Source of the DNA: Puniceicoccales bacterium | Lineage (GTDB): Bacteria; Verrucomicrobiota; Verrucomicrobiia; Opitutales; UBA9783 | Reading direction: 5' to 3' | Length of the DNA stretch: 64,000 nucleotides | NCBI GenBank assembly: GCA_031258545.1 | Contig: JAIRMU010000015.1 | Location: forward strand, 12,761 to 76,760 | In this document: positions 435-60,613 of the stretch, piece by piece | Position numbering within the stretch: position 1 is the first letter of the stretch | Layout of the letters: every line of letters begins with the position of its first letter | Program-made: the position numbers and the translations under genes | Notes under the pieces: generated by a model | What the model saw: only the letters and a program-made list of their open reading frames with translations | What the model was told of the DNA's origin: nothing | Databases searched by the model: none

Positions 435-2725
435 AAGGCTTCTTTACTGCAATAGGATGGAATTTTCGATAAATGCTTCGAAGTATGCAAAAGGTATAAC
501 CAATCCACCATCATTTGGACGGCCTCGTCTTCATAAATATCAAATCGAGTTAGATCTCTATGGGGAATTTGGACATCCGACAAATAAAAATTTTTATAAT
601 ATTTTTTCCATTTTAACAATTGATCTGCCTGCATATCCAATTCCTTGCGCTTCATTCGGTCCGTGGAAAGTTGATGAATCCGGTCGGTTAAATTTAAAGT
701 AAAACGATTCTGTTCATATTTGCATTTAAAATAGTCGATTTGACGTTGATACCAATCAAATGCAGGTTGCTGCAATTGTCGTTCCAACCGTTGTTGATGT
801 AAATACTGAATCAACCCCGGACGTATCCATTTGCAGACCGGATCATCGATGTTTGCAGGTATGGGCGATATGGAATCCCATTCCAAGGCATTTGGCAAAT
901 CCGATTCTCCCACCGGTAATACGTCGTAAAGTGATGGTAGAAATAAGTCTGCACATACACCTTTCTTTTGGGTAGATCTACCATCCGGCAAATACCATTT
1001 TTGCAGCGTAATTTTTGCGGCACCCAGGATGGATTTTGCGCAAGGGAACAAAGATAATCGGTCCATCTCCACAACCGCTTGAACCGTTCCTTTGCCGTGC
1101 GTCGTTTTGTCTCCAAACACGAGAGCTCTGCGGTAAGTTTGCAACGCGCCGGCAACAATTTCGGATGCGGATGCACTGAAACGTGATGTTAAAATCAGCA
1201 AAGGCCCTTTCCAAACACACGTATGGGGATCGGCAAATTGTTGCGTAATTTTCCCGGTCGTATCCTTGATTTGAACAACCGGACAATGATCCAAAAATAA
1301 TCCCGCCAATTTAACGGCTTCATTCAACAAGCCACCTCCGTTACGTCTTAAATCCAAGATAAGGCCTTCTATATTATAGGTTTCCAGTTGCAATATGAGT
1401 GCTTTTACATCTTCTGAGATGCAGTGGGAATCGTTATTGTCTGAAGTTTCTGGACCATAAAAAGCAGGCAAATCAATGAGCCCCACGGCGCGATAACATC
1501 CTTGAAGATCCGGCAAATAAAATAATTTTGCGGAAGCCAAATTGTTCGTCAGTTTAATTTCCTCTCGCACAAGTTCTATAATTTTACGTTCAGAAGGCTC
1601 CGCATCGAACGGCTGAATCAACAAACGTACTTTTGAATTCCGAGGCCCCCGAATAAGTTTGACGGATTGCCGCAACTTCATGCCTTGAATGTTGACAAAA
1701 TCTTTATTATCCTGGGCCACTGCCAAAATTTTATCTCCCGGATGCAAACGTTTATCTTGTTCGGCAGGCCCTCCCGGTAACAGCTCTTTAATGACGCATA
1801 GCCCATTTTCTTCACTTAAATAGGCACCAATACCCACCAAGGCGTTGTGTAGACTAATGGAAAAATCTTCCATGGAATCCGCCGAAAAAAAAGTGGTGTG
1901 CGGATCATAAAAATGTGCCATCGTATTGAGAAAAATTTCCTGAATATCCACCGTATCGATCTTATCAATGCATGATAATAAATTATTGTATTGATCCGCC
2001 AATTTAGTTTTTGCATCCGCTAAATTTTTTATGCACTGCTCAACACTTAAAATCTCATCTTCCGACTCATTTTTGGCGGATTTAGACAAATCCTCCACAC
2101 CCTCTTCTACCCAAGCATTTTCTTTTAACTGCACCGCCAAAGCCTCATTCAACAACTCATGCTGAAGCCGTTGATGCCACAAAAGGTCCAATTCGATACG
2201 TGTTTTTGCCCACGATGCCTCTTTTCGATTGGCGTCATAAAATAAATTTTTATTGAAATTAAAGTTACCTTGTAATCTTTTATGGATCCAACGAATCCTC
2301 TGTTCAGCGATGGTATAATACCTTGCAAATATATTAAATGCGGGTGTTAAACTTCCTCCACGCAACAGTAATTCCAATGAAAGCGCGTATTGATGTATGA
2401 AATTGTCCTTATCCGTTTGGGTAAAAAACATACGCTGAGGATCCAAAGTCAGTAAAAATTCTTCTATTAACTTATGATAATCAATTTCATTAAGAGGCTT
2501 TTTTAAAAAGTGCAATTCTTCCAAAAAACGTACCAAGAAAATGGTTTCCGTTCGCATAATCGCCGTTTGAACAAATGTTTTTCGAGACTTTTCATCACCA
2601 GCCGCAGGATTACGTGTTTTCTTTGCCTGTACAAACGACTTGCCCCCCAAATAATACACAAGTGCCGTACAAAAAATAACATATTTGAAGGCCGTCAAAA
2701 AAAACAAACGAAATTTTTTATTCAT
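395..2725 (-). CDS. prc: Carboxy-terminal (tail-specific) processing protease, S41A family with PDZ domain
   Basis: N-terminal signal/anchor; PDZ region GIGAYL...GGPAEQ; DLRRNGGGLL; catalytic SASASEIVAGALQ; GKGTVQ. Confidence 0.92.
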   Translation of the reverse strand: MNKKFRLFFLTAFKYVIFCTALVYYLGGKSFVQAKKTRNPAAGDEKSRKTFVQTAIMRTETIFLVRFLEELHFLKKPLNEIDYHKLIEEFLLTLDPQRMFFTQTDKDNFIHQYALSLELLLRGGSLTPAFNIFARYYTIAEQRIRWIHKRLQGNFNFNKNLFYDANRKEASWAKTRIELDLLWHQRLQHELLNEALAVQLKENAWVEEGVEDLSKSAKNESEDEILSVEQCIKNLADAKTKLADQYNNLLSCIDKIDTVDIQEIFLNTMAHFYDPHTTFFSADSMEDFSISLHNALVGIGAYLSEENGLCVIKELLPGGPAEQDKRLHPGDKILAVAQDNKDFVNIQGMKLRQSVKLIRGPRNSKVRLLIQPFDAEPSERKIIELVREEIKLTNNLASAKLFYLPDLQGCYRAVGLIDLPAFYGPETSDNNDSHCISEDVKALILQLETYNIEGLILDLRRNGGGLLNEAVKLAGLFLDHCPVVQIKDTTGKITQQFADPHTCVWKGPLLILTSRFSASASEIVAGALQTYRRALVFGDKTTHGKGTVQAVVEMDRLSLFPCAKSILGAAKITLQKWYLPDGRSTQKKGVCADLFLPSLYDVLPVGESDLPNALEWDSISPIPANIDDPVCKWIRPGLIQYLHQQRLERQLQQPAFDWYQRQIDYFKCKYEQNRFTLNLTDRIHQLSTDRMKRKELDMQADQLLKWKKYYKNFYLSDVQIPHRDLTRFDIYEDEAVQMMVDWLYLLHTSKHLSKIPSYCSKEALWNQYVAYTLQAN

Positions 2726-2734
2726 GCTATAAGA

Positions 2735-3562
2735 TTAAAATTTTCTACACTGCTCAAGCCACTTCTTTTCTTCCACAGAAAGTGACCCCATCCCTTCTTC
2801 GTGTAATTTCCGTAAAATATCAAAGGGAATAAGCTGAACACGATTACTTTCCGTTGCATCGTCTTCTATGTGCACCTGATAATTTGTTTTAAATGGAATT
2901 TTTTGCTTCTTTTTTTCACGGTAAAATTCGAAATGCCGCTGCACTAGGCAGTACGTAAAACCGCACAGCATGCCCCCTAAATGCGCAGAATTTGCAACGG
3001 AAGAATTATTTTGGAGTTCATACAATACACCGTTGATCACTTCGTACCACCAAGTAAAGTAGATAAGCCATTTGGCTTTTATCTGTACCGGAAAGACAAA
3101 AAAAACAAGCAACGACAGGGATTTCTCGGGATACATGTGACAAAAATAAGTCAACAGGGCCATGATACCCGCCGAAGCTCCCATTAAACAATGCGCACCA
3201 TGTGCATGTGCGGACAACCAACACAAACCACCTCCCACGATGCCACAAAAGTATAAAATTAATAGGGATTTCAAGGTTAGTTCATAAATTAACAAAAAAC
3301 GACTTAGGAAATAAAGCATCAAGCCGTTGAACAAAAAATGGAAAAAATCTGCATGTAAAAAAGAATAAGAGAACAGCATCCAAAATTTACCTTTCACCAG
3401 GCCTGGAAAAGAAAGGGAAAATTGATTTTCAATCCAATGGCTATTGAACCAAATATTAAGGATTTGCATGCAAACAAACACCCCACCGTAAATGCCTATT
3501 AATTTTTTTATAAAGGCATCTCGAGGCTGGTAATTAACAGCACGAAAAAACGAATGTTGCAT
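2735..3562 (-). CDS. Rhomboid-family intramembrane serine protease
   Basis: Multiple TM segments; HADFFHFLFN, catalytic GASAG and AHLGG motifs. Confidence 0.9.
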   Translation of the reverse strand: MQHSFFRAVNYQPRDAFIKKLIGIYGGVFVCMQILNIWFNSHWIENQFSLSFPGLVKGKFWMLFSYSFLHADFFHFLFNGLMLYFLSRFLLIYELTLKSLLILYFCGIVGGGLCWLSAHAHGAHCLMGASAGIMALLTYFCHMYPEKSLSLLVFFVFPVQIKAKWLIYFTWWYEVINGVLYELQNNSSVANSAHLGGMLCGFTYCLVQRHFEFYREKKKQKIPFKTNYQVHIEDDATESNRVQLIPFDILRKLHEEGMGSLSVEEKKWLEQCRKF

Positions 3563-3726
3563 GGGATATGTTTATATTTTTCTTATCCCAACGGCAAGCT
3601 TTAACCATTTTTTTTATAAATACATAAATTTTAAGTTTTAAAACCATGCGCAAATAGTTTTTCACATTTTTGTGTTGAAGAAATTCTTTTATATTTTACA
3701 TTTACTCGCACGATTTATAGAAATTT

Positions 3727-3900
3727 ATGCCAAGAGAACACGTTATTATTGAATGTACCGAAGCACGTAAGGAAGGAAAACCTGTTTCTCGTTATATGAC
3801 AACGCGCAATAAAAAGCTTCAGGTTAAAAAAGTAGAAAAAATGAAATACAACAGGTTTTTAAGACGCCATACCTTACATCGGGAAATAAAAGATAAATAG
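3727..3900 (+). CDS. rpmG: 50S ribosomal protein L33 (57 aa, absent from ORF track; lacks the paired CxxC zinc motifs)
   Basis: Manual translation [57 protein letters not shown]; the [15 protein letters not shown] signature is present. Confidence 0.95.
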
Positions 3901-3919
3901 GCCTCTCCTAAGGCTTTTT
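3901..3919 (+). terminator. Possible weak intrinsic terminator after rpmG
   Basis: GCCT-CTCCTA-AGGC hairpin followed by T5, immediately after the stop codon. The stem is short. Confidence 0.3.
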
Positions 3920-4039
3920 GAGCCTTTTCACTTTAGTGGGTAACAATGGTTACAAGGTGGAGAGGTTGATTCCACAAAAAAGTAAACATTCTTTTCACTT
4001 GAAAATCCCCTTAGACTTTTTAGGGTGTAGGATAGTTGT

Positions 4040-4831
4040 ATGCCGGAAACAAATGTTAAAATTTGTGCAAGTCACGTCGGTAAAGCTTTTAGGAGAGATC
4101 ATCGTTTCATTAAAGTATTGGATGATATCTCTTTTTCCATACAAACGGGAGAATTTGTTGCGATTTTAGGACCCAGTGGATGCGGAAAATCTACGTTATT
4201 AAATATGGTAGCCGGTCTTGAGCCTTGCGAAGAGGGGCATATTATCGTTAATGAGTATCATACCGATCAACCTGAACGACATCGCATGATGATGTTTCAG
4301 GAAGCAGCCTTGTTTCCTTGGTATAATGTGCTCGGCAACGTTGTTTACGGTTTACGATTCAAGAAAGGGCTAACAAATGCCGAACGTAAGACAATTGCAT
4401 TGTACTATCTCCGCATGGTTGGGCTTGATCACTTTGAACGAGCGTACGTCCACGAACTTTCCGGAGGGATGAAGCAACGCGTTGCGTTGGCAAGGGCCTT
4501 GGCTCCAAATCCACAAATACTTCTCATGGACGAACCTTTCAGCGCACTTGATGCACTCACCTGCGAGCAGCTCTACAAAGATGTCCAAAAAATTTGGAAC
4601 ATGCAACACAAAACCGTGCTGCTCGTAACGCATAACGTACGCGAAGCAGTCGTGTTGACGCAACGCGTTATTGTGCTTTCCCAACGTCCAGGGAAAATTT
4701 TAAAAGATCTTCCCATTCAATTGCCTTATCCAAGATCTGTACACGATGTGTCGGTATCTGCACTTGCCAACGAGCTCATCAACGTATTGCACGAAAAAGA
4801 TGATGTTTATAATTACGCTTCTTGCACATGA
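4040..4831 (+). CDS. ABC transporter ATP-binding protein, NitT/TauT (TauB/SsuB-like) family
   Basis: Walker A GPSGCGKST, signature LSGGMKQRVALARALA, Walker B LLMDEPFSALD, H-loop VTHN. Confidence 0.92.
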   Translation: MPETNVKICASHVGKAFRRDHRFIKVLDDISFSIQTGEFVAILGPSGCGKSTLLNMVAGLEPCEEGHIIVNEYHTDQPERHRMMMFQEAALFPWYNVLGNVVYGLRFKKGLTNAERKTIALYYLRMVGLDHFERAYVHELSGGMKQRVALARALAPNPQILLMDEPFSALDALTCEQLYKDVQKIWNMQHKTVLLVTHNVREAVVLTQRVIVLSQRPGKILKDLPIQLPYPRSVHDVSVSALANELINVLHEKDDVYNYASCT

Positions 4832-11854: not shown

Positions 11855-12559
11855 TCAAAAACGAGGATTCCGCGAATAAAAGCAAAAATTGCACGGCGTC
11901 TCGGTTACTTTCAATTTTAATCCAGGCTGCATGAGGGTCGTTCCAACGTACAATCCATGCCTACCTCCCGCAATGTACGGGAAATAATCATTACTACCTC
12001 CAAACCGCCGTCTTTCGGTCGCATAAAAAATACCGCTGGCAGCTGGGCTAGTTGTTGAATAAAGCTGCACATGTGAGTTAGTCGATTTTTTCAAATGTCC
12101 AATAACGAGTTGATTCAAGACACTTGCCGCTTCGACAATCTTTTTTGCAGCAGAGAACGTAACCAAGGCCCTATACAATGGATAATAAGCTAACTTTGTT
12201 CCACTGTTGCACTCATCCCCAACGTAATAAATGACTCCCCGACCCCCTTCAACCATACCGCGTTCTTGAATTAAGAGTAAGCAATTACCTACTTTCGGAA
12301 ACGTTGTACTTGCGTAAGTGAAACCGAGTGCACTTGATAAATCGGCAAATACGTAAAATTCGAGCGAATTATGCACATCTTTTTCCATGTATTTCGAAAA
12401 CGTTCTCAACTGCTCACTTAATTTGCTGTTTCCGGAAATTAAGTAATACTGATTCAGTTGTGTTAAAAAAAATTGCGTGCAAAAAGTCAAAAAAACACCG
12501 GCCATAACGCCTGCCAACATGATTTCAACTAAAGTAAATCCTCTCGATTTATTCTTCAT
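11855..12559 (-). CDS. Prepilin-type N-terminal cleavage/methylation protein (minor pilin/pseudopilin-like)
   Basis: Short basic leader MKNKSRG|FTLVE followed by a hydrophobic helix. Confidence 0.8.
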   Translation of the reverse strand: MKNKSRGFTLVEIMLAGVMAGVFLTFCTQFFLTQLNQYYLISGNSKLSEQLRTFSKYMEKDVHNSLEFYVFADLSSALGFTYASTTFPKVGNCLLLIQERGMVEGGRGVIYYVGDECNSGTKLAYYPLYRALVTFSAAKKIVEAASVLNQLVIGHLKKSTNSHVQLYSTTSPAASGIFYATERRRFGGSNDYFPYIAGGRHGLYVGTTLMQPGLKLKVTETPCNFCFYSRNPRF

Positions 12560-20107: not shown

Positions 20108-20380
20108 GTGGGACAGTCGGTTATTATAGACATAGCAAGTAAGGTAATGATGCTTGTGTTGATTTTGTCATTACCTTCCATTCTATTGGCAACCATTGTT
20201 GGGCTAGGGGTCAGTTTACTGCAAGCGCTTACGCAAGTCCAAGAACAAACTCTAAGTTTTGCGGTGCGATTGATTTGCATTACCCTTGTTCTGTTATTTT
20301 CGGCCCATTGGATTGGCAACGAACTTATAAAATATATAGAATCTATTTTTATCCAAATTCCGAGAATTACGGGTAAATAA
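20108..20380 (+). CDS. sctS: T3SS export apparatus SctS (EscS/YscS; FliQ homolog)
   Basis: LSLPSILLATIVGLGVSLLQALTQVQEQTLSFAVRL; first gene of an S-T-U cluster. Confidence 0.92.
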   Translation: MGQSVIIDIASKVMMLVLILSLPSILLATIVGLGVSLLQALTQVQEQTLSFAVRLICITLVLLFSAHWIGNELIKYIESIFIQIPRITGK

Positions 20381-21180
20381 TGAACCCATTGCACGATCTT
20401 CTGCCGATTAAAGACATTTTATTGTGCGCACTCATCTGCTGTACCCGCATGTTAGCTTTTTGTTCCACTTCCGTATTCTTTTCGTCACAATTCTTAACGG
20501 GTACGGGACGCAGGGCACTCATAGTTGCCTTATCCCTCATTCTTGTTCCCTTACTTCTTCCAAGCAGTTTAGAACATGCAAAAGCAGATGTATTAGATTG
20601 CTTAGGGTATATACTTAAAGAATCTATTCTGGGCATCATTTTGGGCTTGTTGAGTAATTTTATATTCTATGTGGCGCAAGGTGTAGGATTCGTCATCGAC
20701 ACGCAACGCGGGGCTTCTATGGCAAGTATGTTTGACCCCCTAAGTAATTCTCAAACGAGTCCTCTGGGCGACTTTTTAATGAAATTTACACTTATTCTGG
20801 CTTTGCTCAGCGGTGCCTTCTTAAAAATTATGGAAATGGTTTACGTAAGTTACTTAACATTTCCCATATTTAGTCCTTTGCCTCCATTGGAGCATTGGTT
20901 TCCAAATTTCTTTTTAACGGCTTTCGGGGATGATCTTTTCGCTACGCTCGCACTCCTCGGTGGCCCCGTGTTATTTATCCTATTTTTAGCAGAATTTGGG
21001 CTTGGCATGGTCACACGATTTGCGCCTCAACTCAACGTATTTTTTCTTGCGATGCCCATTAAAAGTGCCCTGGCCATGTTCTTTTTCATTTTGTATTTAA
21101 CCCACCTGGGAGAATATTTTGTAAATAATTTTGAACTGCACAATTTGGCTCAACGTTTCCTAAACGCACTGCGGCATTGA
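20380..21180 (+). CDS. sctT: T3SS export apparatus SctT (EscT/YscT; FliR homolog)
   Basis: KESILGIILG, GFVIDTQRGA, TSPLG, EFGLGMVTRFAPQLNVFFLAMPIKS. Confidence 0.92.
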   Translation: MNPLHDLLPIKDILLCALICCTRMLAFCSTSVFFSSQFLTGTGRRALIVALSLILVPLLLPSSLEHAKADVLDCLGYILKESILGIILGLLSNFIFYVAQGVGFVIDTQRGASMASMFDPLSNSQTSPLGDFLMKFTLILALLSGAFLKIMEMVYVSYLTFPIFSPLPPLEHWFPNFFLTAFGDDLFATLALLGGPVLFILFLAEFGLGMVTRFAPQLNVFFLAMPIKSALAMFFFILYLTHLGEYFVNNFELHNLAQRFLNALRH

Positions 21181-21184
21181 CATC

Positions 21185-22273
21185 ATGAGCGAAAAAACAG
21201 AGCAACCTACGCCTAAAAAAATTCGTGATGCAAGGAAAAAAGGTCAAGTTCCCAACAGCAAAGATGTAACGTCTACGGCACTCCTGATTGTTATCTTCAC
21301 TTATCTTGGATTATCGCGTGTTACCATTTTACAAACGCTGATGGATTTAATTGTCGCCCCATGCCAATTTTTTACACAACCCTTTGAAGACGCTTTTAAA
21401 GGTATGCTATGGGTTTGCTTCAAGGTTGGCCTTAAAGTGGTTCTTCCGTTAGTTTTGCTCGTGTTTATCACAGGTGTTGCGGCAAACGTATTGCAATTTG
21501 GACTTTTAATGTCCCCCGAAAGCATTATACCAAAATTGGATAAACTTAATCCCGTATCGAAGCTAAAGCAGATGTTTTCCATGAAAAATTTGATCGAATT
21601 TCTTAAATCGGCGGCAAAAATTACTTTTTTGGGAACCTTACTCTACTTTGTCATTCGAAATGTTCTAGATCCCCTCTTAAAAATTCCTTATGCAAGCCTC
21701 AGTAATTTTATAAACATTATGCCAAGTGTCTTAAAAACCTTTGCCTATAACGTCGGGTTTGCCTACATCGTGGTTGCTTTTCTGGATTTCATATTTCAAC
21801 GACACAATCACACCAAACAACTCATGATGTCCAAAGATGAAGTCAAGCGAGAGTACAAGGAAATGGAAGGGGATCCGACGATTAAGGGAAAACGCAAGCA
21901 GCTCCACAGAGAATTGCTACAGGGGGGGCCTGCGCAAAAGACAAAACGAGCTTCCGCACTCGTCACCAATCCTACGCACTATGCAATCGCGCTCTACTAC
22001 GACGAAATCACAGTTCCGTTACCCATTGTTTTGGCCAAAGGAACAGGCTTTCAGGCACAGATAATGAAGAAAGTTGCCATGGATTACGACATCCCCATCA
22101 TGGAAAATGTACCTCTTGCACACGCTTTGTACGACTTGGCGGAAATTGGTCGCTACATTCCTCGTGAACTTATCGAACCCGTGGCCGAAGTTATTCGTTG
22201 GGTACGCGACCAAAAACAACGTACCCAAGAGAGCATTGAAGTTTCTCAAGATCAATGGGATAAAATTTTTTAG
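21185..22273 (+). CDS. sctU: T3SS export apparatus switch protein SctU (EscU/YscU; FlhB homolog)
   Basis: MSEKTEQPTPKKIRDARKKGQV, MSKDEVKREYKEMEGDP, autocleavage motif NPTH. Confidence 0.94.
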   Translation: MSEKTEQPTPKKIRDARKKGQVPNSKDVTSTALLIVIFTYLGLSRVTILQTLMDLIVAPCQFFTQPFEDAFKGMLWVCFKVGLKVVLPLVLLVFITGVAANVLQFGLLMSPESIIPKLDKLNPVSKLKQMFSMKNLIEFLKSAAKITFLGTLLYFVIRNVLDPLLKIPYASLSNFINIMPSVLKTFAYNVGFAYIVVAFLDFIFQRHNHTKQLMMSKDEVKREYKEMEGDPTIKGKRKQLHRELLQGGPAQKTKRASALVTNPTHYAIALYYDEITVPLPIVLAKGTGFQAQIMKKVAMDYDIPIMENVPLAHALYDLAEIGRYIPRELIEPVAEVIRWVRDQKQRTQESIEVSQDQWDKIF

Positions 22274-24701: not shown

Positions 24702-25823
24702 TCAAAATGAAAATAAGCCTTTCTTTTTAACGGCCGTTTTGTCTCCCCGAATACGTTCCAGTAATTCCTTGGCAAATTGTGCTTTGGCCAAAGCTTCTTC
24801 CTCCGAAATCGTTCCTTTTACATACAAATCGAACAAATGACGATCCAAAGGAAGCATACCCAGTCCTTGATTGACTTCGATTTCCGTTTGAATGCGAAAT
24901 GTTTTGTTTTCCCGAATAAGATTGGAAATAGAATCGGCTCGCGTCATAATTTCAAAAGCCGCAACGCGTCCCTTGGAAGATTTTTTCCTGCATAATACTT
25001 GTGAAATAACCCCGATTAAATTGGATGCCAATTGCGTTCTCACAAGTTCCTTGCTGCCCTCCGCAAACGCATCTATGATGCGATCTACGGTACGCGTGGA
25101 TCCCGTTGTGTGCAAAGTCGACAGTACCAAATGGCCCGTTTCGGCAGCCGAAACGGCCGCTTCAATGGTCGCCAGGTCGCGCATTTCTCCAACCAAAATT
25201 ACGTCCGGATCCTGACGTAAAGCGCCCGTAATGGCCTTTTGGAATGATGGTGTATCCCTGCCCAATTCTCGTTGCGTAATGAGGCACTGATCCGGTTGGT
25301 AAAGGTATTCGATGGGATCTTCTATGGTAATAACGTGCTTGGCGTAATGCGTATTAATCCAATCGATCATTGCGGCCAGCGTGGTAGATTTTCCGGAACC
25401 CGTAGGTCCTGTAACCAACAGCAATCCCCGAGGACTATTTAACAAATCTTTAATTTTTTCCAAAGAGTGCGTCGGTAAGCCCAAATTGTCTAAAGATAAT
25501 GCATCGTCGTTAATGATACGCATGACAATACCGTATTTTTCACAGCTGGTAAATACGTTCACGCGCAAACGGACTTTGCGATTTTCAATTTCAGGATTGA
25601 TGGCAAAATCCACCTCCCGTGAGACTTTAAATGCCGCCGTCATTTTTTCAGGTATCAGTGCTTTCGCAAAACTTTCCACCTCTTCATCGGTTAAAATGGG
25701 AAGATCAAGTGGGCACATAAGTCCATCAACGCGCAATGTAGGAGGCTCATTAACCCTCAAATGAATATCGGAAGCCTGTTGATTAAGTGCAAATTGAATC
25801 AGGTTGTTTATGGTTAGGCTCAT
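24702..25823 (-). CDS. pilT: Type IV pilus retraction ATPase, PilT/PilU family
   Basis: ASDIHL, GPTGSGKSTT, TIEDPIE, ALRQDPDVILVGEMRD, AETGHLVLSTLHT. Confidence 0.9.
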   Translation of the reverse strand: MSLTINNLIQFALNQQASDIHLRVNEPPTLRVDGLMCPLDLPILTDEEVESFAKALIPEKMTAAFKVSREVDFAINPEIENRKVRLRVNVFTSCEKYGIVMRIINDDALSLDNLGLPTHSLEKIKDLLNSPRGLLLVTGPTGSGKSTTLAAMIDWINTHYAKHVITIEDPIEYLYQPDQCLITQRELGRDTPSFQKAITGALRQDPDVILVGEMRDLATIEAAVSAAETGHLVLSTLHTTGSTRTVDRIIDAFAEGSKELVRTQLASNLIGVISQVLCRKKSSKGRVAAFEIMTRADSISNLIRENKTFRIQTEIEVNQGLGMLPLDRHLFDLYVKGTISEEEALAKAQFAKELLERIRGDKTAVKKKGLFSF

Positions 25824-29098: not shown

Positions 29099-30727
29099 AT
29101 GGCTATCAATGCAACAGGGGTAACACAAGTTACCCATCCGATTACGAGTACACCAGGTGCAAATGATACCGGTAGCGTTACAAAAAATCTAACCTCTACT
29201 GCAGGCGTGCCCCAACAAGACCAAGCAACATCCGCATTATCGGATGCCACAAAGCAAAAACAAAGACAAATTGCCCTAACAAACCAACCCAAAACAGCTG
29301 TGGCACTTAATCTTTTGTTAGGTGAAGTACAGCAAGGAGTAAAGTATAAACCAGTGCAGATCGAAAAAACATTGTTGGAAGACATGCAACAAAATCCTCT
29401 TCGCAACCTTTTAGGTGCTAAAATAACTTTCAATATTGATCCTCAAAATTTACTACAGCAACAAAAAGACAACATAGATCATGATATAGCGTGCGTAGAA
29501 CGATGGCTGTCTGGCATTCCTCATTGTTCGCCCAAGCAACAAGGTAAACTATGTGCCGGACTGGGTGAACGAATAAATGGGTCCCCCTATCAACCTGAAA
29601 TATTGGCACTTCTGAATCAGCATGCTACAAATAACCCACAAATTGCAGCTACTAGAGATGCCTACGCAGGTAAACACAGCGAGCATATTACAGGAGAATT
29701 TTGTCAAAAATTAAGTGCAGTTTTAACAGAACCAACGCAGGAAACGCAGGTCACACCCATGCAGGCCAAACTTGCATTTATCGAGCAATTCAATGGGGCA
29801 CAAAGTTTAGAGAATAAAAGCGCCACCCAAATACGAAATGAACAGGCGGCTATAGAATCTCTATTAAAAAAAGATGATCTTACACCTTCAAATCGCGTAT
29901 TTTTACAACAGTTATCCTTGGCATACGAAATAAAGTTGAACGAAAATAATCCAAAGAAGATGGTAGAACTCGCTTCACAGTTCGCAGAACAAGAAGTACC
30001 ATTCTTGCGACAGATGGTTCAGGTGGCTCAAAATATTAGTCAAACGAACACTATGTCGGAGGCGCAAAAACAAAGAATATTGGATGCCCAAGATATAACT
30101 GATATATCAGCCAGGATATGCGATGCGATGTTCCCTAGAACAATGGAAGCTGTCAAGATGCCGAAGTTCAAAACTAAAGGAGATGCCTACTTAAAAATAT
30201 ATGGTAATCATGTAACGCAAGGAGTTATGCGTTTTAACAGCTTAATGCAAGAGATGGTAAAAAAAACACTAGCATCAGACCCTGAAACGGTAAAACGAGT
30301 AGGTGACGAGCTCAAAGGATATATAAATTTATTCTCATCGAATACAGCTTTATATACAGCCCGTGTCGAAGAAGCCTCTACAAAAGAATTACAATCCTTT
30401 AATACAACAGGCTTAATCAATGCAAACGACGGTAGTTTTGCCGAGTTTGACAAACAGCATTCACTGGACATCTTGAAGGGATTTTCAACAAAAACATTAC
30501 AATCTCTCGTTGAACGTGGTCAAGAACTCAGCAAGCAACCAAAGGCTAACACAACAGAGTTTCGAAAATCATTTGAAGTTGTTTTACGGTATGCACCTCT
30601 TCCGGAAGACCAGCGAGAGAGGCAACAAATGTTTGGGATCTTAACACAAGGTATTCAGTGCTTCCCCCAGAAAATGCAAAAGGAATTAGGCAGCATTTTA
30701 CAGAGTCGGATCACGCCATCTGCCTAA
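29099..30727 (+). CDS. Array gene E1 (542 aa): orphan paralog, candidate T3SS effector
   Basis: S/T/P-rich N-terminus, no Sec signal or TM segment; central/C-terminal module (TQIRNEQAAI...LFSSNTALYTARVEEASTKELQSFNTTGLI) is shared with E5. Confidence 0.75.
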   Translation: MAINATGVTQVTHPITSTPGANDTGSVTKNLTSTAGVPQQDQATSALSDATKQKQRQIALTNQPKTAVALNLLLGEVQQGVKYKPVQIEKTLLEDMQQNPLRNLLGAKITFNIDPQNLLQQQKDNIDHDIACVERWLSGIPHCSPKQQGKLCAGLGERINGSPYQPEILALLNQHATNNPQIAATRDAYAGKHSEHITGEFCQKLSAVLTEPTQETQVTPMQAKLAFIEQFNGAQSLENKSATQIRNEQAAIESLLKKDDLTPSNRVFLQQLSLAYEIKLNENNPKKMVELASQFAEQEVPFLRQMVQVAQNISQTNTMSEAQKQRILDAQDITDISARICDAMFPRTMEAVKMPKFKTKGDAYLKIYGNHVTQGVMRFNSLMQEMVKKTLASDPETVKRVGDELKGYINLFSSNTALYTARVEEASTKELQSFNTTGLINANDGSFAEFDKQHSLDILKGFSTKTLQSLVERGQELSKQPKANTTEFRKSFEVVLRYAPLPEDQRERQQMFGILTQGIQCFPQKMQKELGSILQSRITPSA

Positions 30728-30950
30728 CTTCGCCATGTGTTTAACGATATGCCTGCCTCCGAAAAACGGCTTCGATCGTAAGATGCCCGGCATAATGGGC
30801 ACATGCGGATAATGGCCTCGGAGAAAGTATTTGTCCATCCACAAGACTTTTTCTACTTTGATGGCATCTTCGCGTAAATTAAGAACTTTGTTCACGCACA
30901 AAATGGAAAATGATGCAAAATCGCATCCAAATTCTTGTTCTTTGGTCCAT
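30728..30950 (-). pseudogene. Decayed copy of the 5' part of the fabZ-like gene at 28536-28991
   Basis: Reads VNKVLNLREDAIKVEKVLWMDKYFLRGHYPHVPIMPGIL versus VDKILNLHEDVIEVEKVLRVDEYFFQGHYPHMPIMPGVL; frameshifts on both sides; DNA similarity continues into the promoter region. Confidence 0.88.
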
Positions 30951-31003
30951 GCCTTCCCCCTCTTTCTAGAGCAAATCGACAATAAATTACATCTTTACAT
31001 TTG

Positions 31004-31046
31004 TTGATAAAATTGTCTTGCAAATGATTTAAATTGTCTTTATTAC
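31004..31046 (+). promoter_or_regulatory. Array promoter copy 2 (degenerate -10)
   Basis: TTGATAAAATTGTC-TTGCAA-N17-TATTAC; ATG at 31058. Confidence 0.55.
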
Positions 31047-31057
31047 ATTACCCATAT

Positions 31058-31663
31058 ATGTCTCTACAAGTTAATAACAATTCAAATGTATCACCTGGTG
31101 TATCTGATAGTTCTACTACACCAACCGCAGGAAAAAATGCTGCAGGTCGTAGTATCACATCATCGGATCAACCGATAACAACGGTTGCTAATATGGCTAG
31201 CCAACAAATTCTATCTCAACGACAGCAAGCAGGAATGCGAAGAGTACAAGAGGCAAAAACAGAAAATCTAAATGAGGATATGGCCGCATCCCAAGCGTCA
31301 GCCGCCAAGTACGATAAGAAAAGTGCATTAGGGCAATGGGGCTCGCGGGTGAAAGGAAAACTTGTGGGGACAGGTGATTATGCTGACAAAAAAGCAACCT
31401 TTGCCAAACTGCAGAATGACATTGAATACCATACATTCAAATCTTCGATACCATCACCTAATCATCTAGCAGATCTTAATGCGGATAAAGCTCAGCTAAG
31501 GGAATGGCAAAACGCCGTGTTACAATATTCTCCCAAAGATCAAGCGAAGCTAATGTCCACACTGATGGCGAAGATAAACAGTCCTGAGACTGCACATGGC
31601 CTAAAAGAGACGTTTGCTACATGGCTGCAGACGCCTGAGGTTAAGAATATGAAGTTAAAGTGA
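31058..31663 (+). CDS. Array gene E2 (201 aa from ATG 31058): orphan paralog, candidate T3SS effector
   Basis: N-terminus MSLQVNNNSNVSPGVSDSSTTPTAGKNAAGRSIT; repeat unit WQNAVLQYSPKDQAKLMSTLMAKIN. Confidence 0.72.
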   Translation: MSLQVNNNSNVSPGVSDSSTTPTAGKNAAGRSITSSDQPITTVANMASQQILSQRQQAGMRRVQEAKTENLNEDMAASQASAAKYDKKSALGQWGSRVKGKLVGTGDYADKKATFAKLQNDIEYHTFKSSIPSPNHLADLNADKAQLREWQNAVLQYSPKDQAKLMSTLMAKINSPETAHGLKETFATWLQTPEVKNMKLK

Positions 31664-31742
31664 TAAAAACTTACGACGGGAGGGTTCCTCATTGTCACCC
31701 ACTTTTTAATTTATATCCAAGGCCAAATTCTCTTTACATTCG

Positions 31743-31785
31743 TTGGCCAAATTATCTTGCAAACGTCGTAAAAAGTTTTTAAACT
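31743..31785 (+). promoter_or_regulatory. Array promoter copy 3
   Basis: TTGGCCAAATTATC-TTGCAA-N17-TAAACT; ATG follows after 7 nt. Confidence 0.65.
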
Positions 31786-31792
31786 GGATAAA

Positions 31793-55129: not shown

Positions 55130-55588
55130 TTACGCTGGCATATTGGAATATACAGCGGTTTCTTGGGTATTTCCCTTGGTCCCCCCCTGCTGCAAGGTCT
55201 TCAAGTGTTGCACCCAGTATTCAAATGTATTTACGAAACACTCCAAAGATTTTTCAAAAATTTCATAGTCGCAATTCAAGAGGGGCGTATGTTGGACCAA
55301 TAAGACTTTATCACTGAACTGCTGGAGACCTAGAGTAGCACCATGCGTCTCCCTCCATTGCAAGTTTGCTTCCAGTAAGCGCGGATAAACGCGTTTAATT
55401 TGCCACTCATTTACATTTCCCAAACTAGCCTTAAAAGAAAAAACATTATCCGCCATATTGAGTTCTATGGTGACCAATAACGTCTCGTCAAACATTAAAA
55501 AACACTGATGTTTATCGTCCAACACCAACGGTTCCTCCAAATTTACTTCCGACGCTAACCGATTAAGCCACTGCTGAAATACCTGCAT
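55130..55588 (-). CDS. Class I T3SS chaperone, CesT/SycE family
   Basis: 152 aa; LVLDDKHQCFLMFDE, LLEANL.W.ET.GATLGL, C-terminal helix FEKSLECFVNTFEYW. Confidence 0.85.
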   Translation of the reverse strand: MQVFQQWLNRLASEVNLEEPLVLDDKHQCFLMFDETLLVTIELNMADNVFSFKASLGNVNEWQIKRVYPRLLEANLQWRETHGATLGLQQFSDKVLLVQHTPLLNCDYEIFEKSLECFVNTFEYWVQHLKTLQQGGTKGNTQETAVYSNMPA

Positions 55589-56548: not shown

Positions 56549-56893
56549 ATGGCGGCTTTAACAACGGAACAAACAAATTTTTTATATCTGCTCGCTTACA
56601 TGTATATGCAGCAGTCAAAATACACGCAAGCCTTGCAATTATTTCGAATTCTGCGTCTGCATACGGCGGAAAACATGCAAATAGCACTCACGTTGGCCTT
56701 TTGCTTGTACAAAGCGAGTCGTTTAGAAGAAGCGACCAAAGTTTTAAATTCTCTGGATACAAATAAACTCTCCACCCGTCAAAAAACTGCCTATTACTTT
56801 ATTAGCAGCAAGGTTTTGTGGGATCTAAAAAAAGTTACCGAATCGCGGGAAATGTTACACAGCTATTTAAAATGTAGAAAACTAAATTCATGA
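56549..56893 (+). CDS. YscY/SctY-like small TPR protein
   Basis: 114 aa, helical/TPR-like; LTTEQTNFLYLLAYMYMQQSKYTQA resembles the YscY N-terminus as recalled; 4-bp overlap with sctV, the yscY position in Ysc loci. Confidence 0.65.
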   Translation: MAALTTEQTNFLYLLAYMYMQQSKYTQALQLFRILRLHTAENMQIALTLAFCLYKASRLEEATKVLNSLDTNKLSTRQKTAYYFISSKVLWDLKKVTESREMLHSYLKCRKLNS

Positions 56894-58992
56894 GCTTTGT
56901 AGGATCCATAGAAAAAACCGTTGCCAAAGTTTCACGTTTCAATGACGTTTTATTGGCCGTCTTGGTGGTCATGATCATTGCTTTGATGATCGTTCCCGTT
57001 CCAAGTTACATCCTAGATGGCCTCATAGCACTCAATTTCACCATCTCCATCATCCTCCTCATGATGGCACTCTACATCCCCAACGTGCTTGCGTTTTCCA
57101 CATTCCCCAGCATGTTATTGTTCACAACGCTCTTTCGATTGGCCCTCAGCATCACAACCACGCGCATGATTTTGCTGTACGCCGATGCCGGTGAAATTAT
57201 TTTCACGTTCGGGCAATTTGTTGTGGGAGGTAATTTCGTTGTTGGAGCCGTTATCTTTTTGATACTTTTAATCGTCCAATTTTTGGTCATCACCAAAGGT
57301 GCCGAACGTGTTGCCGAAGTGGCAGCCAGGTTTACTTTGGATGCGATGCCGGGAAAACAAATGAGCATCGATGCCGATATGCGGGCCGGTACCATTGATA
57401 TGGATGAAGCTAAGCGCCGACGCAGCGATCTTGAACGAGAAAATCAACTTTACGGCGCCATGGATGGTGCCATGAAATTCGTCAAAGGAGATGCCATTGC
57501 GGGACTCATTATTACCGCCGTCGACATCATTGCCGGACTGATTATTGGGGTTACCCAAAAAGGGATGGAATTGCAAAAAGCGCTTACGACGTATTCCATT
57601 TTAACCATTGGAGATGGTCTCGTTTCCCAAATTCCCGCACTGCTGATTTCTATTACGGCCGGTATTATCGTAACAAAGGTAGGAGCCGCCGATGGAACTA
57701 TTTTGGGGCGCGACATCGGCAAACAAGTCCTCGGACAACCCAAAGCGCTGCTCATAGGTGGCTTCATGGTCGTTGGAATGATGCTCATGCCCGGCTTTCC
57801 CAAAGTTCCTTTCCTGATTTTGGCATCCATGGTCCTTGTTGTGGGGTACACGCTCGTTAAAACTCGCGGACAAACGGGAAAACCAAAACGTCAACATTCT
57901 CCCATGTCTCCCGCAGCCAATCCCCCACGTAAAGCTCCGGAAGTTACCAACGAGTCCGAAGACTCCGGAGATGAATTTTCGGTCACCATCCCACTCATAT
58001 TGGATGTAGCGCGTTCCGTTGAAGAAACCATCGAGCCCGACGTTTTGAATGAGCAACTTATTCAAATTCGTAAGGCTTTGTATCACGATCTAGGCGTTCC
58101 GTTTCCCGGGATTCACCTGAGATTCAACGAAAGTTTGGAAGATAATTGTTACAGAATTTTGCTGAGTGAAGTTCCCATTAGCCAAGGTAAATTGATGGGG
58201 ACGCACGTTTTGGTGCGCGAATCAAAGGAAAACCTTGACATCTTGGGGATTAATATTGTTGAAGCCGAAAACTTTTTACCCAATATCCCGACTTTGTGGG
58301 CAGCCGCCTCCGACATAGAAATATTAAATACGGCCAACGTTGCCTACATGCGTACGCCACAAATTCTCACCTACCATTTATCCTTCATTTTAAAAAAATA
58401 TGCGGGTGAATTTTTGGGCATTCAGGAATGTAAGTTTTTATTGGAAAATATGGAACAGGATTTTCCTGAAATTGTACGCGAAGTACAGCGCGTTTTACCC
58501 ATACAAAAAATTACGGACATTTTCCAAAGACTAGTGCAGGAAGAAATTTCCATTAGAAATTTAAAACTTATTTTACAGTGTTTAATCGACTGGGGACAAA
58601 AAGAAAAAGAGCCCGTTTTATTGGCTGACTACGTACGATCCAATTTACGCCGTTACATCAGTTATAAATTCAGCGAAGGCCGCAACGTCCTTTCCGTTTA
58701 CTTACTGGATCCACAAGTTGAAGAAGTCGTCCGCAAAGCGGTTAGACAAACTTCTGCAGGAAGTTATCTTGCACTTGACCCGCCGACCGCCAAAAAGCTG
58801 GTCAAAGCCATTAAAGATGAAGTGGGCGAAATCCATCTTTTATCCCACCGTCCGGTTCTTCTTACATCCATGGATATCCGACGCTACATTCGAAAATTGA
58901 TTGAATTAGAAATCTATGATTTACCCGTTTTGTCACACCAAGAACTTACGGAAGAAATAACCATTCGCCCGCTCGGTAGGGTTCACATATAG
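56890..58992 (+). CDS. sctV: T3SS export gate protein SctV (LcrD/EscV; FlhA homolog)
   Basis: FPSMLLFTTLFRLALSITTTR, GAERVAEVAARFTLDAMPGKQMSIDAD, GAMDGAMKFVKGDAIAG, IGDGLVSQIPAL, EISIRNL, LPVLSHQEL. Confidence 0.95.
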   Translation: MSFVGSIEKTVAKVSRFNDVLLAVLVVMIIALMIVPVPSYILDGLIALNFTISIILLMMALYIPNVLAFSTFPSMLLFTTLFRLALSITTTRMILLYADAGEIIFTFGQFVVGGNFVVGAVIFLILLIVQFLVITKGAERVAEVAARFTLDAMPGKQMSIDADMRAGTIDMDEAKRRRSDLERENQLYGAMDGAMKFVKGDAIAGLIITAVDIIAGLIIGVTQKGMELQKALTTYSILTIGDGLVSQIPALLISITAGIIVTKVGAADGTILGRDIGKQVLGQPKALLIGGFMVVGMMLMPGFPKVPFLILASMVLVVGYTLVKTRGQTGKPKRQHSPMSPAANPPRKAPEVTNESEDSGDEFSVTIPLILDVARSVEETIEPDVLNEQLIQIRKALYHDLGVPFPGIHLRFNESLEDNCYRILLSEVPISQGKLMGTHVLVRESKENLDILGINIVEAENFLPNIPTLWAAASDIEILNTANVAYMRTPQILTYHLSFILKKYAGEFLGIQECKFLLENMEQDFPEIVREVQRVLPIQKITDIFQRLVQEEISIRNLKLILQCLIDWGQKEKEPVLLADYVRSNLRRYISYKFSEGRNVLSVYLLDPQVEEVVRKAVRQTSAGSYLALDPPTAKKLVKAIKDEVGEIHLLSHRPVLLTSMDIRRYIRKLIELEIYDLPVLSHQELTEEITIRPLGRVHI

Positions 58993-59322
58993 GGTCATTT
59001 TCACGACAAGCATAAGATTATTTACAAGAATTATGTAAGATTCCTAGCCGGTCTATGCAAAAAGATGATAGGGTGCAAAATCGCTGCCAGAAAACCAAGA
59101 TATTGGGATAATGTCATCGTATCCTTCCCCATAGACATTATCATCAATGCGCTTATTCTGTCCTTGAGTCGCATTTACTTACTTCGCCCCGGAATCAAAT
59201 CTATAACCCATATGCCTCAATCCATAAACGGCTTTTATGCTTTATAATCCACATGGGCTTAATGCTCCATTTCAGAAAATAAAATATGTAAGAGAAAGAA
59301 TCCGAATAAATGAGCAGTGAGT

Positions 59323-60456
59323 CTAATAATATCGATTTTCCCAGAGAACAGTGTTAGTAGGATTTGTTGAACCGGGACATTCGGGAAAGAGGCAAGCCAT
59401 ACCGTTCTTATTCCTATTAAGTATAATATACCTTTCGCCAATCGTTGATTTAAACTTAAGATAACACTTGTTCCAATCTGCAGTATTTGGGGTGATGCCG
59501 AACAATGCTATTCCAGCACCATCAAGTCCATCAGCTTCCGTCATCCAATTTTCTATGTCGTAACAGTAGGCAGCATTCCCCAATGGCCTATGATTCCATT
59601 TTCTTGTTAAAGGATTCATTAAATGACTGGGTACAAATGGGCACAATTTAGCCGGTATATCATCCCAGTCGGCGTTCGGAGGGAATTCATTAAAGATAAG
59701 ATAGTAAGTGCGGCAAGCCTTCATGATACCCAGAGTATCTTCGAGGGTAGAATTCAGTCGAAAATCTTCGGTGGCTTTTCTAAAGCCCGGAATGGCAATG
59801 GCGGTAAGAATGCCTACAATGCACAGGGTGACAACGACCTCGATGAGGGTAAATCCGTTTCGGTTGGCGAATGGATGTTTTGACGTCCGGCAAAATTCAG
59901 ATGCCAGGAAAGGAACCGACGTCCTGGAATATCCCGTTGCTTGACCGAACCCCAATGCCCTACTATCCTCTGCTGCCTGACCAGATCCCGACTGAGGACA
60001 TCCCGGATTAGAATATCCCGCTGCGATTAAAAGGTCAGAGGTCTTGGTATTTCGGTGAAAGCCGTTTCGACCTACGGACGAACATCTTAACCCTCGGTTC
60101 GGTTCAGGCCTTCGTTCAAGTCCCAACCCCCGGATCGGCTTTAGGTTTCGACCTAGTTCCGATCTCCAGACTGGTTCCAGGTCTCGGCTTGATCCAGACC
60201 GTTGTTCCAGATCTAATCTCGGGCTTGACCCCAACTTTCTATTTGGTGCCGATCTTCGGCCGTATTCCAACCCGTGGTTCGGTTCAAATCCTAATTCCCA
60301 GACAGGCCCTAGGGCTCGATTTAGTTCCAACCGTTGATTTAGATCCAATGTTTGGATCGGTCTCGATTTCTGATTTGGTTTTAATTCCCGGCTTAGTCTT
60401 AATTCACAGACGGATTTCCACTCTCGACTTAGCTCCGATCCTCGACCGGCTCCCAA
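59323..60456 (-). CDS. Pilin/pseudopilin (176-aa mature part from 59853) preceded in-frame by a long repeat-encoded leader; true start uncertain
   Basis: NRNG|FTLIEVVVTLCIVGILTAIAIPGF class III signal. The frame is open from 60570. Candidate starts: TTG 60456, TTG 59955, or the repeat-dependent GTG 60574. Confidence 0.75.
   Translation of the reverse strand: MGAGRGSELSREWKSVCELRLSRELKPNQKSRPIQTLDLNQRLELNRALGPVWELGFEPNHGLEYGRRSAPNRKLGSSPRLDLEQRSGSSRDLEPVWRSELGRNLKPIRGLGLERRPEPNRGLRCSSVGRNGFHRNTKTSDLLIAAGYSNPGCPQSGSGQAAEDSRALGFGQATGYSRTSVPFLASEFCRTSKHPFANRNGFTLIEVVVTLCIVGILTAIAIPGFRKATEDFRLNSTLEDTLGIMKACRTYYLIFNEFPPNADWDDIPAKLCPFVPSHLMNPLTRKWNHRPLGNAAYCYDIENWMTEADGLDGAGIALFGITPNTADWNKCYLKFKSTIGERYIILNRNKNGMACLFPECPGSTNPTNTVLWENRYY
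60062..60440 (-). repeat. Degenerate ~18-bp tandem repeat (about 20 units) encoding hexapeptides like EPNRGL/ELNRAL
   Basis: Units such as CCCTCGGTTCGGTTCAGG and CCCGTGGTTCGGTTCAAA on the + strand; 6-residue periodicity in the translation; boundaries approximate. Confidence 0.7.
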
Positions 60457-60514
60457 CGGTTGACCGGGGTCCTTTAGCTCCGGAACGACATCGGCGATTA
60501 AGCGCTCAGACGCC

Positions 60515-60570
60515 TGAGGTCTTGAGGTCTTGAGGTCTTGAGGTCTTGAGGTCTTGAGGTCTTGAGGTCT
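60515..60570 (+). repeat. Perfect simple sequence repeat (TGAGGTCT)7
   Basis: Seven exact 8-bp units counted directly. Confidence 0.97.
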
Positions 60571-60583
60571 TCACAATGAAGTT

Positions 60584-60613
60584 ATTCTATCTTTCCCCAC
60601 CGACCTCTGTCAA
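60584..60613 (-). promoter_or_regulatory. Putative sigma-70 promoter facing the 8-bp repeat and pilin ORF
   Basis: Minus strand: TTGACA-N18-TAGAAT, then 9 nt to the GTG at 60574. Confidence 0.7.

Follow-up and report, generated by a model that had tools for sequence, protein, structure and literature searches.

A type IV pilin-like gene of an uncultured termite-gut bacterium raises the question of whether a stretch of more than two hundred codons, rich in degenerate repeats, ahead of its prepilin peptidase site is translated and, if so, from which start. The gene lies in a 64,000-nucleotide (nt) stretch of DNA from Puniceicoccales bacterium (assembly GCA_031258545.1, contig JAIRMU010000015.1, positions 12,761-76,760 of the forward strand), called the window here; the pilin gene, its leader, its repeat tract and its promoter are all on the minus strand and are given in window numbering. 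The locus is present in a termite-gut metagenome run, and its homologues are annotated as prepilin-type proteins of Puniceicoccales metagenome-assembled genomes. A preliminary description placed the motif G/FTLIE (slash, cleavage position) at 59853 after 201 open codons from TTG 60456, counted 243 codons in an ON state with eight repeat units, recognized about 20 degenerate units of 18 base pairs (bp) with a hexapeptide consensus, and assigned a leader of 34 amino acids (aa) to TTG 59955. These coordinates and counts hold. The open reading frame (ORF) from TTG 60456 to the stop at 59323 encodes 377 aa, with 201 codons before F, and 243 is correct with GTG 60574 as the start; the periodicity is real and the consensus fits the aligned rows. 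The open frame is actually longer, extending 238 stop-free codons upstream, back to TGA 60573-60571.

We propose, with a probability of roughly 0.6, that this pilin gene is phase-variable and now OFF, and that its leader of about 240 aa is a mosaic that evolves neutrally. The gene would be one member of a multi-copy phase-variable family of type IV pilin-like genes in uncultured termite-gut Puniceicoccales. Transcription would begin from a conserved sigma-70-type promoter at 60613-60584 and translation from GTG 60574, about 3 nt from the predicted 5' end, in a genome that appears nearly devoid of Shine-Dalgarno sequences. The ribosome would at once enter an (AAGACCTC)n tract, where slipped-strand gain or loss of units would shift it among three frames, since 8 is not a multiple of 3. 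Two frames would end at conserved stops 7 and 15 nt past the tract; with the 7 units now present, the gene would be OFF and yield a 22-aa peptide. With 5, 8 or 11 units, in the third frame, translation would pass through about 235-250 aa of basic, hydrophilic leader and reach RNG/FTLIE, where prepilin peptidase would free a 176-aa pilin. The leader would have to be read through, with its amino-acid sequence nearly irrelevant, and would be a mosaic of the repeat tract, an 18-nt minisatellite of about 21 units, and a relic fusion of a cleavage site to a 5' end. The elements of the locus are listed below; WIN denotes the window copy, P00xx homologous proteins, Lxxx related loci, and a or b the two genes on one contig.

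60584-60613, minus strand: sigma-70-type promoter (-35 TTGACA 60613-60608, 18-nt spacer, -10 TAGAAT 60589-60584); the conserved block extends to about 60700
60572-60574, minus strand: candidate start GTG, 9 nt past the -10 box; predicted 5' untranslated region (UTR) of about 3 nt, as in a leaderless-like mRNA
60516-60571, minus strand: simple sequence repeat (AAGACCTC)x7, an exact tract and putative frame switch, currently OFF
60493-60515, minus strand: conserved post-repeat box AGGCGTCTGAGCGCTTAATCGCC (pilin frame ..QASERLIA), with TGA 60508-60506 and TAA 60500-60498 in the two non-pilin frames
60454-60456, minus strand: in-frame TTG, candidate tract-independent start giving a 201-aa leader; equivalents in P0004, P0016 and P0017
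60079-60456, minus strand: about 21 degenerate 18-nt units encoding hexads L-(E/K/D/G)-(P/L)-(N/V/S)-(R/Q)-x, identified by periodicity statistics
60022-60078, minus strand: relic junction SVGRNGF/HRNTKTSDLLIA, encoding SVGRNGFHRNTKTSDLLIA; cleavage-site codons fused to the post-GTG 5' end of another pilin gene
59857-60021, minus strand: proximal leader, 165 nt, including TTG 59955-59953 (34-aa leader); 89% identity to L162a
59851-59856, minus strand: putative prepilin peptidase site G/F of RNG/FTLIE (G codon 59856-59854, F codon 59853-59851)
59323-59853, minus strand: mature pilin-like protein, 176 aa (stop codon 59325-59323)

The reading frame upstream of the pilin

We interrogated the frame upstream of the cleavage site in 10 pilin genes of the family on 8 contigs (the window, L001 with two genes, L002, L004, L161, L162 with two genes, L163 and L164). 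The pilin frame contains 0 stops in 1634 upstream codons, whereas the other five frames of the same stretches contain 93, 66, 104, 57 and 53, and mononucleotide shuffles of the leaders contain 77 on average and never fewer than 54. In all 10 genes the stop-free stretch, 48-244 codons long, runs to the contig edge or to a stop in or beside the -10 box or the GTG; in the four loci with a visible promoter it ends in or beside one of these two elements. Five of the genes (L001a, L001b, L002, L004 and L162b) were not picked via long gene calls, so the open frame is not an artefact of selection. A YYRRRN hexamer pattern could not by itself keep the frame open, given the 53-104 stops in the other frames and the 76-86 that remain in shuffles keeping phase-3, -6 or -18 composition. 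Homologous leader segments also stand in the same phase relative to the pilin, and their net insertions or deletions (indels) are multiples of 3 (3, 6, 9, 15 or 18 nt).

The preliminary description had offered, as one of two alternatives, that the repeats form a long structured 5' UTR controlling a start at TTG 59955. In this account the 18-nt units would form RNA structure or serve as protein-binding sites, such as a CsrA-type array of GGA motifs. The public gene call does begin at TTG 59955 (P0001, 210 aa), GGA occurs 27 times against about 17 expected, and mismatches between paralogous leaders are not concentrated at third codon positions. However, the absence of stops is confined to the pilin frame and the phase is conserved; the 641-nt leader shows no excess RNA structure (fold z=-0.21 vs shuffles); and an Rfam scan of the window returned only three tRNAs, with nothing in the leader. 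We found nothing resembling a promoter or a terminator between tract and pilin, in particular no promoter that would place a transcription start past the repeats. From one locus to another, the nearest in-frame ATG, GTG or TTG would give a leader of anything from 8 to 94 aa, without a conserved proximal start; no counterpart of TTG 59955 was found as a conserved start in the other loci, and 58-94 codons separate the cleavage site from the closest in-frame start in L161, L001a and L162b. The 1.6-fold GGA enrichment arises from Leu-Glu/Asp codon pairs, and a CsrB/RsmZ-like GGA sponge RNA was rejected, there being neither an Rfam match nor excess structure. We consider a non-coding leader highly improbable.

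Taken together, the zero stops, the conserved phase, the lack of excess folding and the lack of an internal promoter or conserved start argue that the leader is translated rather than a structured UTR. These comparisons support translation of the region in the frame of the pilin, or at the least a need for it to be translatable there. This is the long translated leader that the preliminary description had also envisaged; the 10 family genes compared all have an open frame of 48-244 codons ahead of the cleavage site, and the stops in the repeats of relatives that would have spoken for non-coding sequence are absent from their pilin frame. If the leader is translated, prepilin peptidase substrates can bear N-terminal extensions about 10 times the textbook 6-26 aa, with a bearing on how pilins are recognized in annotation, on prepilin targeting and on the tolerance of the peptidase.

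Annotation of this long-leader family is unreliable, given divergent start calls and spurious ORFs on the opposite strand. Gene callers place the starts of the family so variably that the precursors range from 207 to 397 aa. ORFs of 98-114 aa lie open opposite the leader repeats in the window (60189-60533, plus strand) and in L162 (2027-2323, minus strand), and the one in L162 was called as a gene. We rejected the 114-aa plus-strand ORF at 60189-60533 as a real gene, since the reverse frames are not kept open in relatives. The leader (59854-60510) has 52% G+C, against about 42% for both the window and the mature pilin part.

Promoter, GTG and repeat tract

The sequence TTGACA-18-TAGAAT is the sole 11/12 promoter match on the minus strand in 58900-61000. 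Its core, GAAAACCCTTGACAGAGGT..GATAnAATAA, is also kept in L162b, L161 and L001b, and in these four loci, those with a visible promoter, the conserved block reads GAAAACCCTTGACAgAGGT..GATAnAATAA, 9 nt, then GTGAAGAC. The last element, the context of the GTG, is invariant in WIN, L162b, L161, L001b and L002. The transcription start would lie about 3 nt ahead of the GTG, an estimate from promoter geometry alone. A Shine-Dalgarno-like tetramer precedes only 4 of the 31 well-defined genes of the window, and several window ATGs stand 6-9 nt past a -10-like box (for example TAGAAT, 6 nt and ATG at the pilT-like gene 24702-25823, minus strand). This suggests that initiation independent of Shine-Dalgarno sequences, or leaderless, is common in the source genome; the rarity of such sequences and the ATGs abutting -10-like boxes make a near-leaderless GTG plausible.

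Directly after the GTG, Tandem Repeats Finder detects an exact 8-bp tract (60515-60571, 7.1 copies, 100% matches). Paralogous or orthologous loci carry the AAGACCTC 8-mer in 2, 5, 7 and about 14 copies, and other relatives have 7-mers instead (AAGACCC x17, GACTCAA x15, TCAGACC x12). Across five unit types the unit is always 7 or 8 bp, in 2 to 17 copies. By frame arithmetic from GTG 60574, 7 units lead to the 22-aa peptide (OFF); 5, 8 or 11 units lead to products of 411, 419 or 427 aa that include the pilin (ON); and 4, 6, 7, 9 or 10 units lead only to products of 14-30 aa. Both non-pilin frames of the window meet a stop shortly after the tract (TGA 60508 and TAA 60500, 7 and 15 nt past it). 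Stops in both frames lie 5-23 nt past the tract in WIN, L162b, L002, L004 and L164, at 8 and 72 nt in L161, and at 18 and 46 nt in L165. Among the readable switch states, P0023 and L002 are ON, and in both the frame reads from the GTG through the tract into the pilin; WIN, L162b and L161 are OFF. In-frame ATGs are depleted 13-fold in the leaders (2 observed vs about 26 expected), which would block bypass of the switch.

A related architecture occurs in an independent, more distant sister lineage that we retrieved from ENA metagenomes by exhaustive protein search (L165, 319-876; L166, 4001-4693; L167; L168). Here ATG-TTG-TAC-CAT is followed by (CCGCAAT)n, a 57-89-aa leader, G/FTLIE and a related pilin. 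L165 has 13 CCGCAAT units and L166-168 about 2, and all four contigs are in frame; the promoter regions of L165 and L166-168 are alike by eye. The box that follows the tract in the sister lineage (..NLIGA) resembles the ..RLIA of the window family, which suggests that the arrangement of ATG or GTG, tract and long leader is old.

The tract lies inside the ORF only if GTG 60574 is the start, a choice supported by the conservation of the GTG and by the ATG-started sister lineage. We therefore weighed a start past the tract, at TTG 60456, from which the long leader would be translated while the tract lay in the 5' UTR or in a separate short upstream ORF and acted indirectly, through upstream ORF translation, polarity or mRNA stability. 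P0017 is called from the equivalent TTG, and the open stretch between the GTG and 60456 spans only 38 codons, half of them a tract incapable of stops, so that it is weak evidence when taken alone. On the other side, the locus has what a switch within the ORF needs: an invariant GTG that keeps its distance from the -10 box, a unit of 7 or 8 bp, and a stop right after the tract in each wrong frame; the sister lineage has its ATG directly before the tract and in frame in four contigs, and the TTG codon itself lies in GC-rich sequence. A start at TTG 60456 is in our judgement unlikely, though it deserves to be kept in view.

We thus favour translation from GTG 60574, with the 8-bp tract beside it probably making the pilin gene phase-variable by a translational mechanism of the opa type. 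In Neisseria opa genes, CTCTT pentamers lie in the leader-peptide-coding sequence, and repeat number restores or disrupts the frame (PMC3745409). Both systems consist of multi-copy surface-protein genes with their own promoters and with a repeat whose unit is not a multiple of 3, which in opa lies, and here would lie if GTG 60574 is the start, within the sequence coding for a cleaved leader. Unlike opa, the unit here is 7 or 8 bp and the tract begins at codon 2 after a GTG with almost no 5' UTR; the opa leader is a class I signal peptide of about 20 aa, whereas here it would be a class III leader of about 240 aa, and switching is predicted from sequence. Streptococcus gallolyticus pil1 resembles the proposed switch in that repeats within a short 5' coding sequence put a pilus gene under stochastic control; there, GCAGA repeats in an upstream leader peptide ORF destabilise an intrinsic terminator (PMC3894217). 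In contrast, the tract here shares the conserved frame of the pilin, and no terminator-like sites were found in 58900-61000. Attenuation of the pil1 type was rejected on these two grounds. Contingency switching by repeat tracts, best known from human pathogens, would hereby extend to uncultured Verrucomicrobiota gut symbionts, and in an unusual design: a near-leaderless GTG without a Shine-Dalgarno sequence, a hepta- or octanucleotide tract at once, and then a box that stops both wrong frames.

Since the window copy is out of frame with its GTG, it could instead be decaying or silent, that is, a pseudogene or a pilS-like donor cassette whose open frame has no present function. One relative, L001b (L001 1265-1760), is clearly decayed, with promoter and GTG intact, no in-frame start, a degenerate repeat and a mature part frameshifted after about 75 residues; leaders and domains are also shuffled among copies. 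The window copy, however, retains a complete conserved promoter and an intact 176-aa mature part that ends in the family-conserved ENRYY, and it would be ON again after the gain of one unit or the loss of two. That it is a dead or donor copy seems very unlikely to us.

Several points weigh against a switch at the GTG followed by a leader of about 240 aa. Class III leaders are described as 6-26 aa long, up to about 30 aa in type IVb, and stay cytoplasmic (PMC4471445); leaders of the present length are unprecedented beside the published 6-26 aa. P0004 and P0016 begin with ATG at the equivalent of TTG 60456 (MGADR vs LGAGR in the window), so that a start past the tract is possible, with the tract then a 5'-UTR feature. 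Part of the family may use such a downstream start, which would leave the 201-aa giant leader intact while weakening the case for a switch. L161, whose tract comprises just 2 units, is out of frame. It is unusual for a GUG start to lie 3 nt from the 5' end, the position of which is itself an estimate. No prepilin peptidase (A24) gene was found among the window ORFs scanned, and a search of RNA runs for the locus returned none carrying it. The evidence is comparative and computational, tract lengths were compared between assembled contigs, and the sample comprises 10 genes from a few related metagenomes, some of them found via long gene calls.

Composition, constraint and origin of the leader

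The 18-nt periodicity of the leader is pronounced. Compared with dinucleotide shuffles, identity reaches 0.40 at lag 18 (z=6.4) and 0.46 at lag 36 (z=8.5) and is depleted at lags 3, 9 and 15; the units are too degenerate for detection by Tandem Repeats Finder. In the protein, R/Q/K (z=8.7) and L (z=5.8) recur at lag 6. Six other loci share the 18-nt periodicity (z 3.4-8.2). The leader has an isoelectric point of 10.3 and a grand average of hydropathy of -0.93, without a hydrophobic stretch, a basic hydrophilic composition compatible with staying cytoplasmic.

These features bear on the other alternative of the preliminary description, that prepilin peptidase releases a repeat polypeptide with its own role. 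In such an account the released leader, or an uncleaved N-terminal domain, would be a cytoplasmic docking or regulatory domain built of Arg-periodic hexads. Diverged loci retain the hexad periodicity of R/Q/K and L, and the composition is consistently basic and hydrophilic. Against this, ungapped alignments of paralogous leaders show mismatches spread evenly over the three codon positions ([9,7,6], [16,18,20] and [6,7,9]). The ratio of nonsynonymous to synonymous substitution (dN/dS) is 0.5-1, indistinguishable from that of the wrong frames. Leaders differ freely in length (48-244 codons) and in their modules. Neither Pfam nor NCBIfam yields a match within the leader, the [LIV]-G-x4 profile PF00132 included, which leaves a hexapeptide left-handed beta-helix unsupported, and a leader-only protein search returns a single near-identical paralogue. 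An AlphaFold2 model of the full precursor without alignment leaves the leader unstructured, but is uninformative overall (predicted local distance difference test, pLDDT, 33). Turnover of a minisatellite could by itself maintain the periodicity, as the 18-nt indels suggest.

Near-neutral evolution of the leader thus does not support a separate role for a released polypeptide, and we consider a functional leader improbable. The specific form of the idea in which the Arg-periodic array is a cytoplasmic prepilin domain, one that holds the precursor or delivers it to the peptidase or assembly platform, or else is released as a regulatory polypeptide, is a speculation to which we give little credence. 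If it held, class III signal peptides could carry cargo-like N-terminal domains, and pilin biogenesis would have a new control atop the leaderless GUG and repeat-tract switch. The constraint on the leader apparently is to stay open rather than to keep a particular amino-acid sequence.

How, then, could a leader under this constraint have grown? The left half of the junction at 60078-60022 matches the window's own cleavage-site codons, CGAAACGGxTTT, and the right half agrees at 31/35 nt with the 5' end that follows the GTG in L001b. At least 12 relatives carry this RNGF-HRDTKTSDRLIA module, and P0017 has two copies of it. Genes of the family stand in tandem in L001 and L162, and a deletion between tandem copies would fuse the leader of one gene to the 5' end of the next. 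The 18-nt units continue the codon register of RNG/F and paralogues differ by 18-nt indels, as expected of a minisatellite turning over in frame. We infer that leaders lengthened through duplications in frame and through deletions between tandem paralogues, a growth that would be tolerated since the leader would be cut off. A second leader module of about 150 nt (..GWLKSFGxSGLFH..FFGTVRPIR..) is found in many relatives and is absent from the window; it lies at about 210-390 in L002, 220-400 and 2180-2330 in L162, 20-200 and 330-510 in L163 (hence twice) and 380-560 in L164, and contains small palindromes such as GAAGGTCTTC.

The proximal leader and N-terminal helix of the window copy are 89% identical to those of L162a over 281 nt, whereas the globular domains are 30% identical, a mismatch that indicates recombination at the conserved 5' part. 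Leader similarity does not track globular-domain type in the family. The leader may also serve as shared homology through which leaders and globular domains of pilins get shuffled. Neisseria pilE/pilS likewise combine a conserved 5' part (leader and N-terminal helix) with variable globular parts shuffled among paralogues. Unlike pilS, the copies here have their own promoters and tracts, no G-quadruplex (G4) or pilS-type machinery is evident, and recombination is deduced from mosaic similarity only. Such mosaic leaders suggest that a cleaved-off region can turn into an evolutionary dumping ground and a recombination handle for pilin variants.

The pilin family and its genomic surroundings

The protein matches PF07963 at 26.2 bits (cut-off 21.2) and TIGR02532 at 27.9 (cut-off 16.3). 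The G, F, T, L and E of the cleavage motif are invariant in 23 homologues, and G(-1)/F(+1)xxxE(+5) is followed by about 20 hydrophobic residues, as in class III substrates. On length the leader departs from the short hydrophilic leader of that class, the shortest conceivable one in the window being the 34 aa from TTG 59955. AlphaFold2, given a 23-sequence alignment, models the mature part with a mean pLDDT of 82 as a long N-terminal helix and four strands, with helices at 37-88. Every one of the best PDB matches is a type IV pilin, among them Clostridioides difficile PilA1 (probability 0.99, template modelling (TM) score 0.62) and gonococcal pilin, with TM scores of up to 0.62 normalised to the target and E-values no better than 0.025. 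The mature part is thus predicted to adopt a pilin fold, with the N-terminal helix on a beta-sheet. The protein resembles type IV pilins and pseudopilins in its RNG/FTLIE motif, its hydrophobic N-terminal helix and its predicted alpha-beta fold, and differs from described pilins in the leader length that the open frame implies (201-243 aa in the window, 48-244 aa over the whole family).

Read depth is 20-24 in unique parts, 155-257 in the promoter region and 1880-4170 in the tract; the excess of promoter and tract over unique sequence indicates a multi-copy family. Contigs of relatives often break at these repeats. Ordinary pilin-like genes with short leaders coexist with the family, in the window at 11855-12559, minus strand (MKNKSRG/FTLVE), and in L005 at 4001-4519 (MMRLKHKRSCG/FTLAE), the latter with its own promoter. 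The PilT-like ATPase (PF00437) is encoded at 24702-25823 on the minus strand.

The window also carries type III secretion genes at 20380-22273, 55130-55588 and 56890-58992, encoding SctT, SctU, a CesT-like chaperone and SctV, whose gene is convergent with that of the pilin. A row of six large paralogous proteins at 29099-38494, none with a Pfam match, may be effectors. Type III secretion with possible effectors would be in keeping with a termite-gut bacterium that is host-associated or intracellular.

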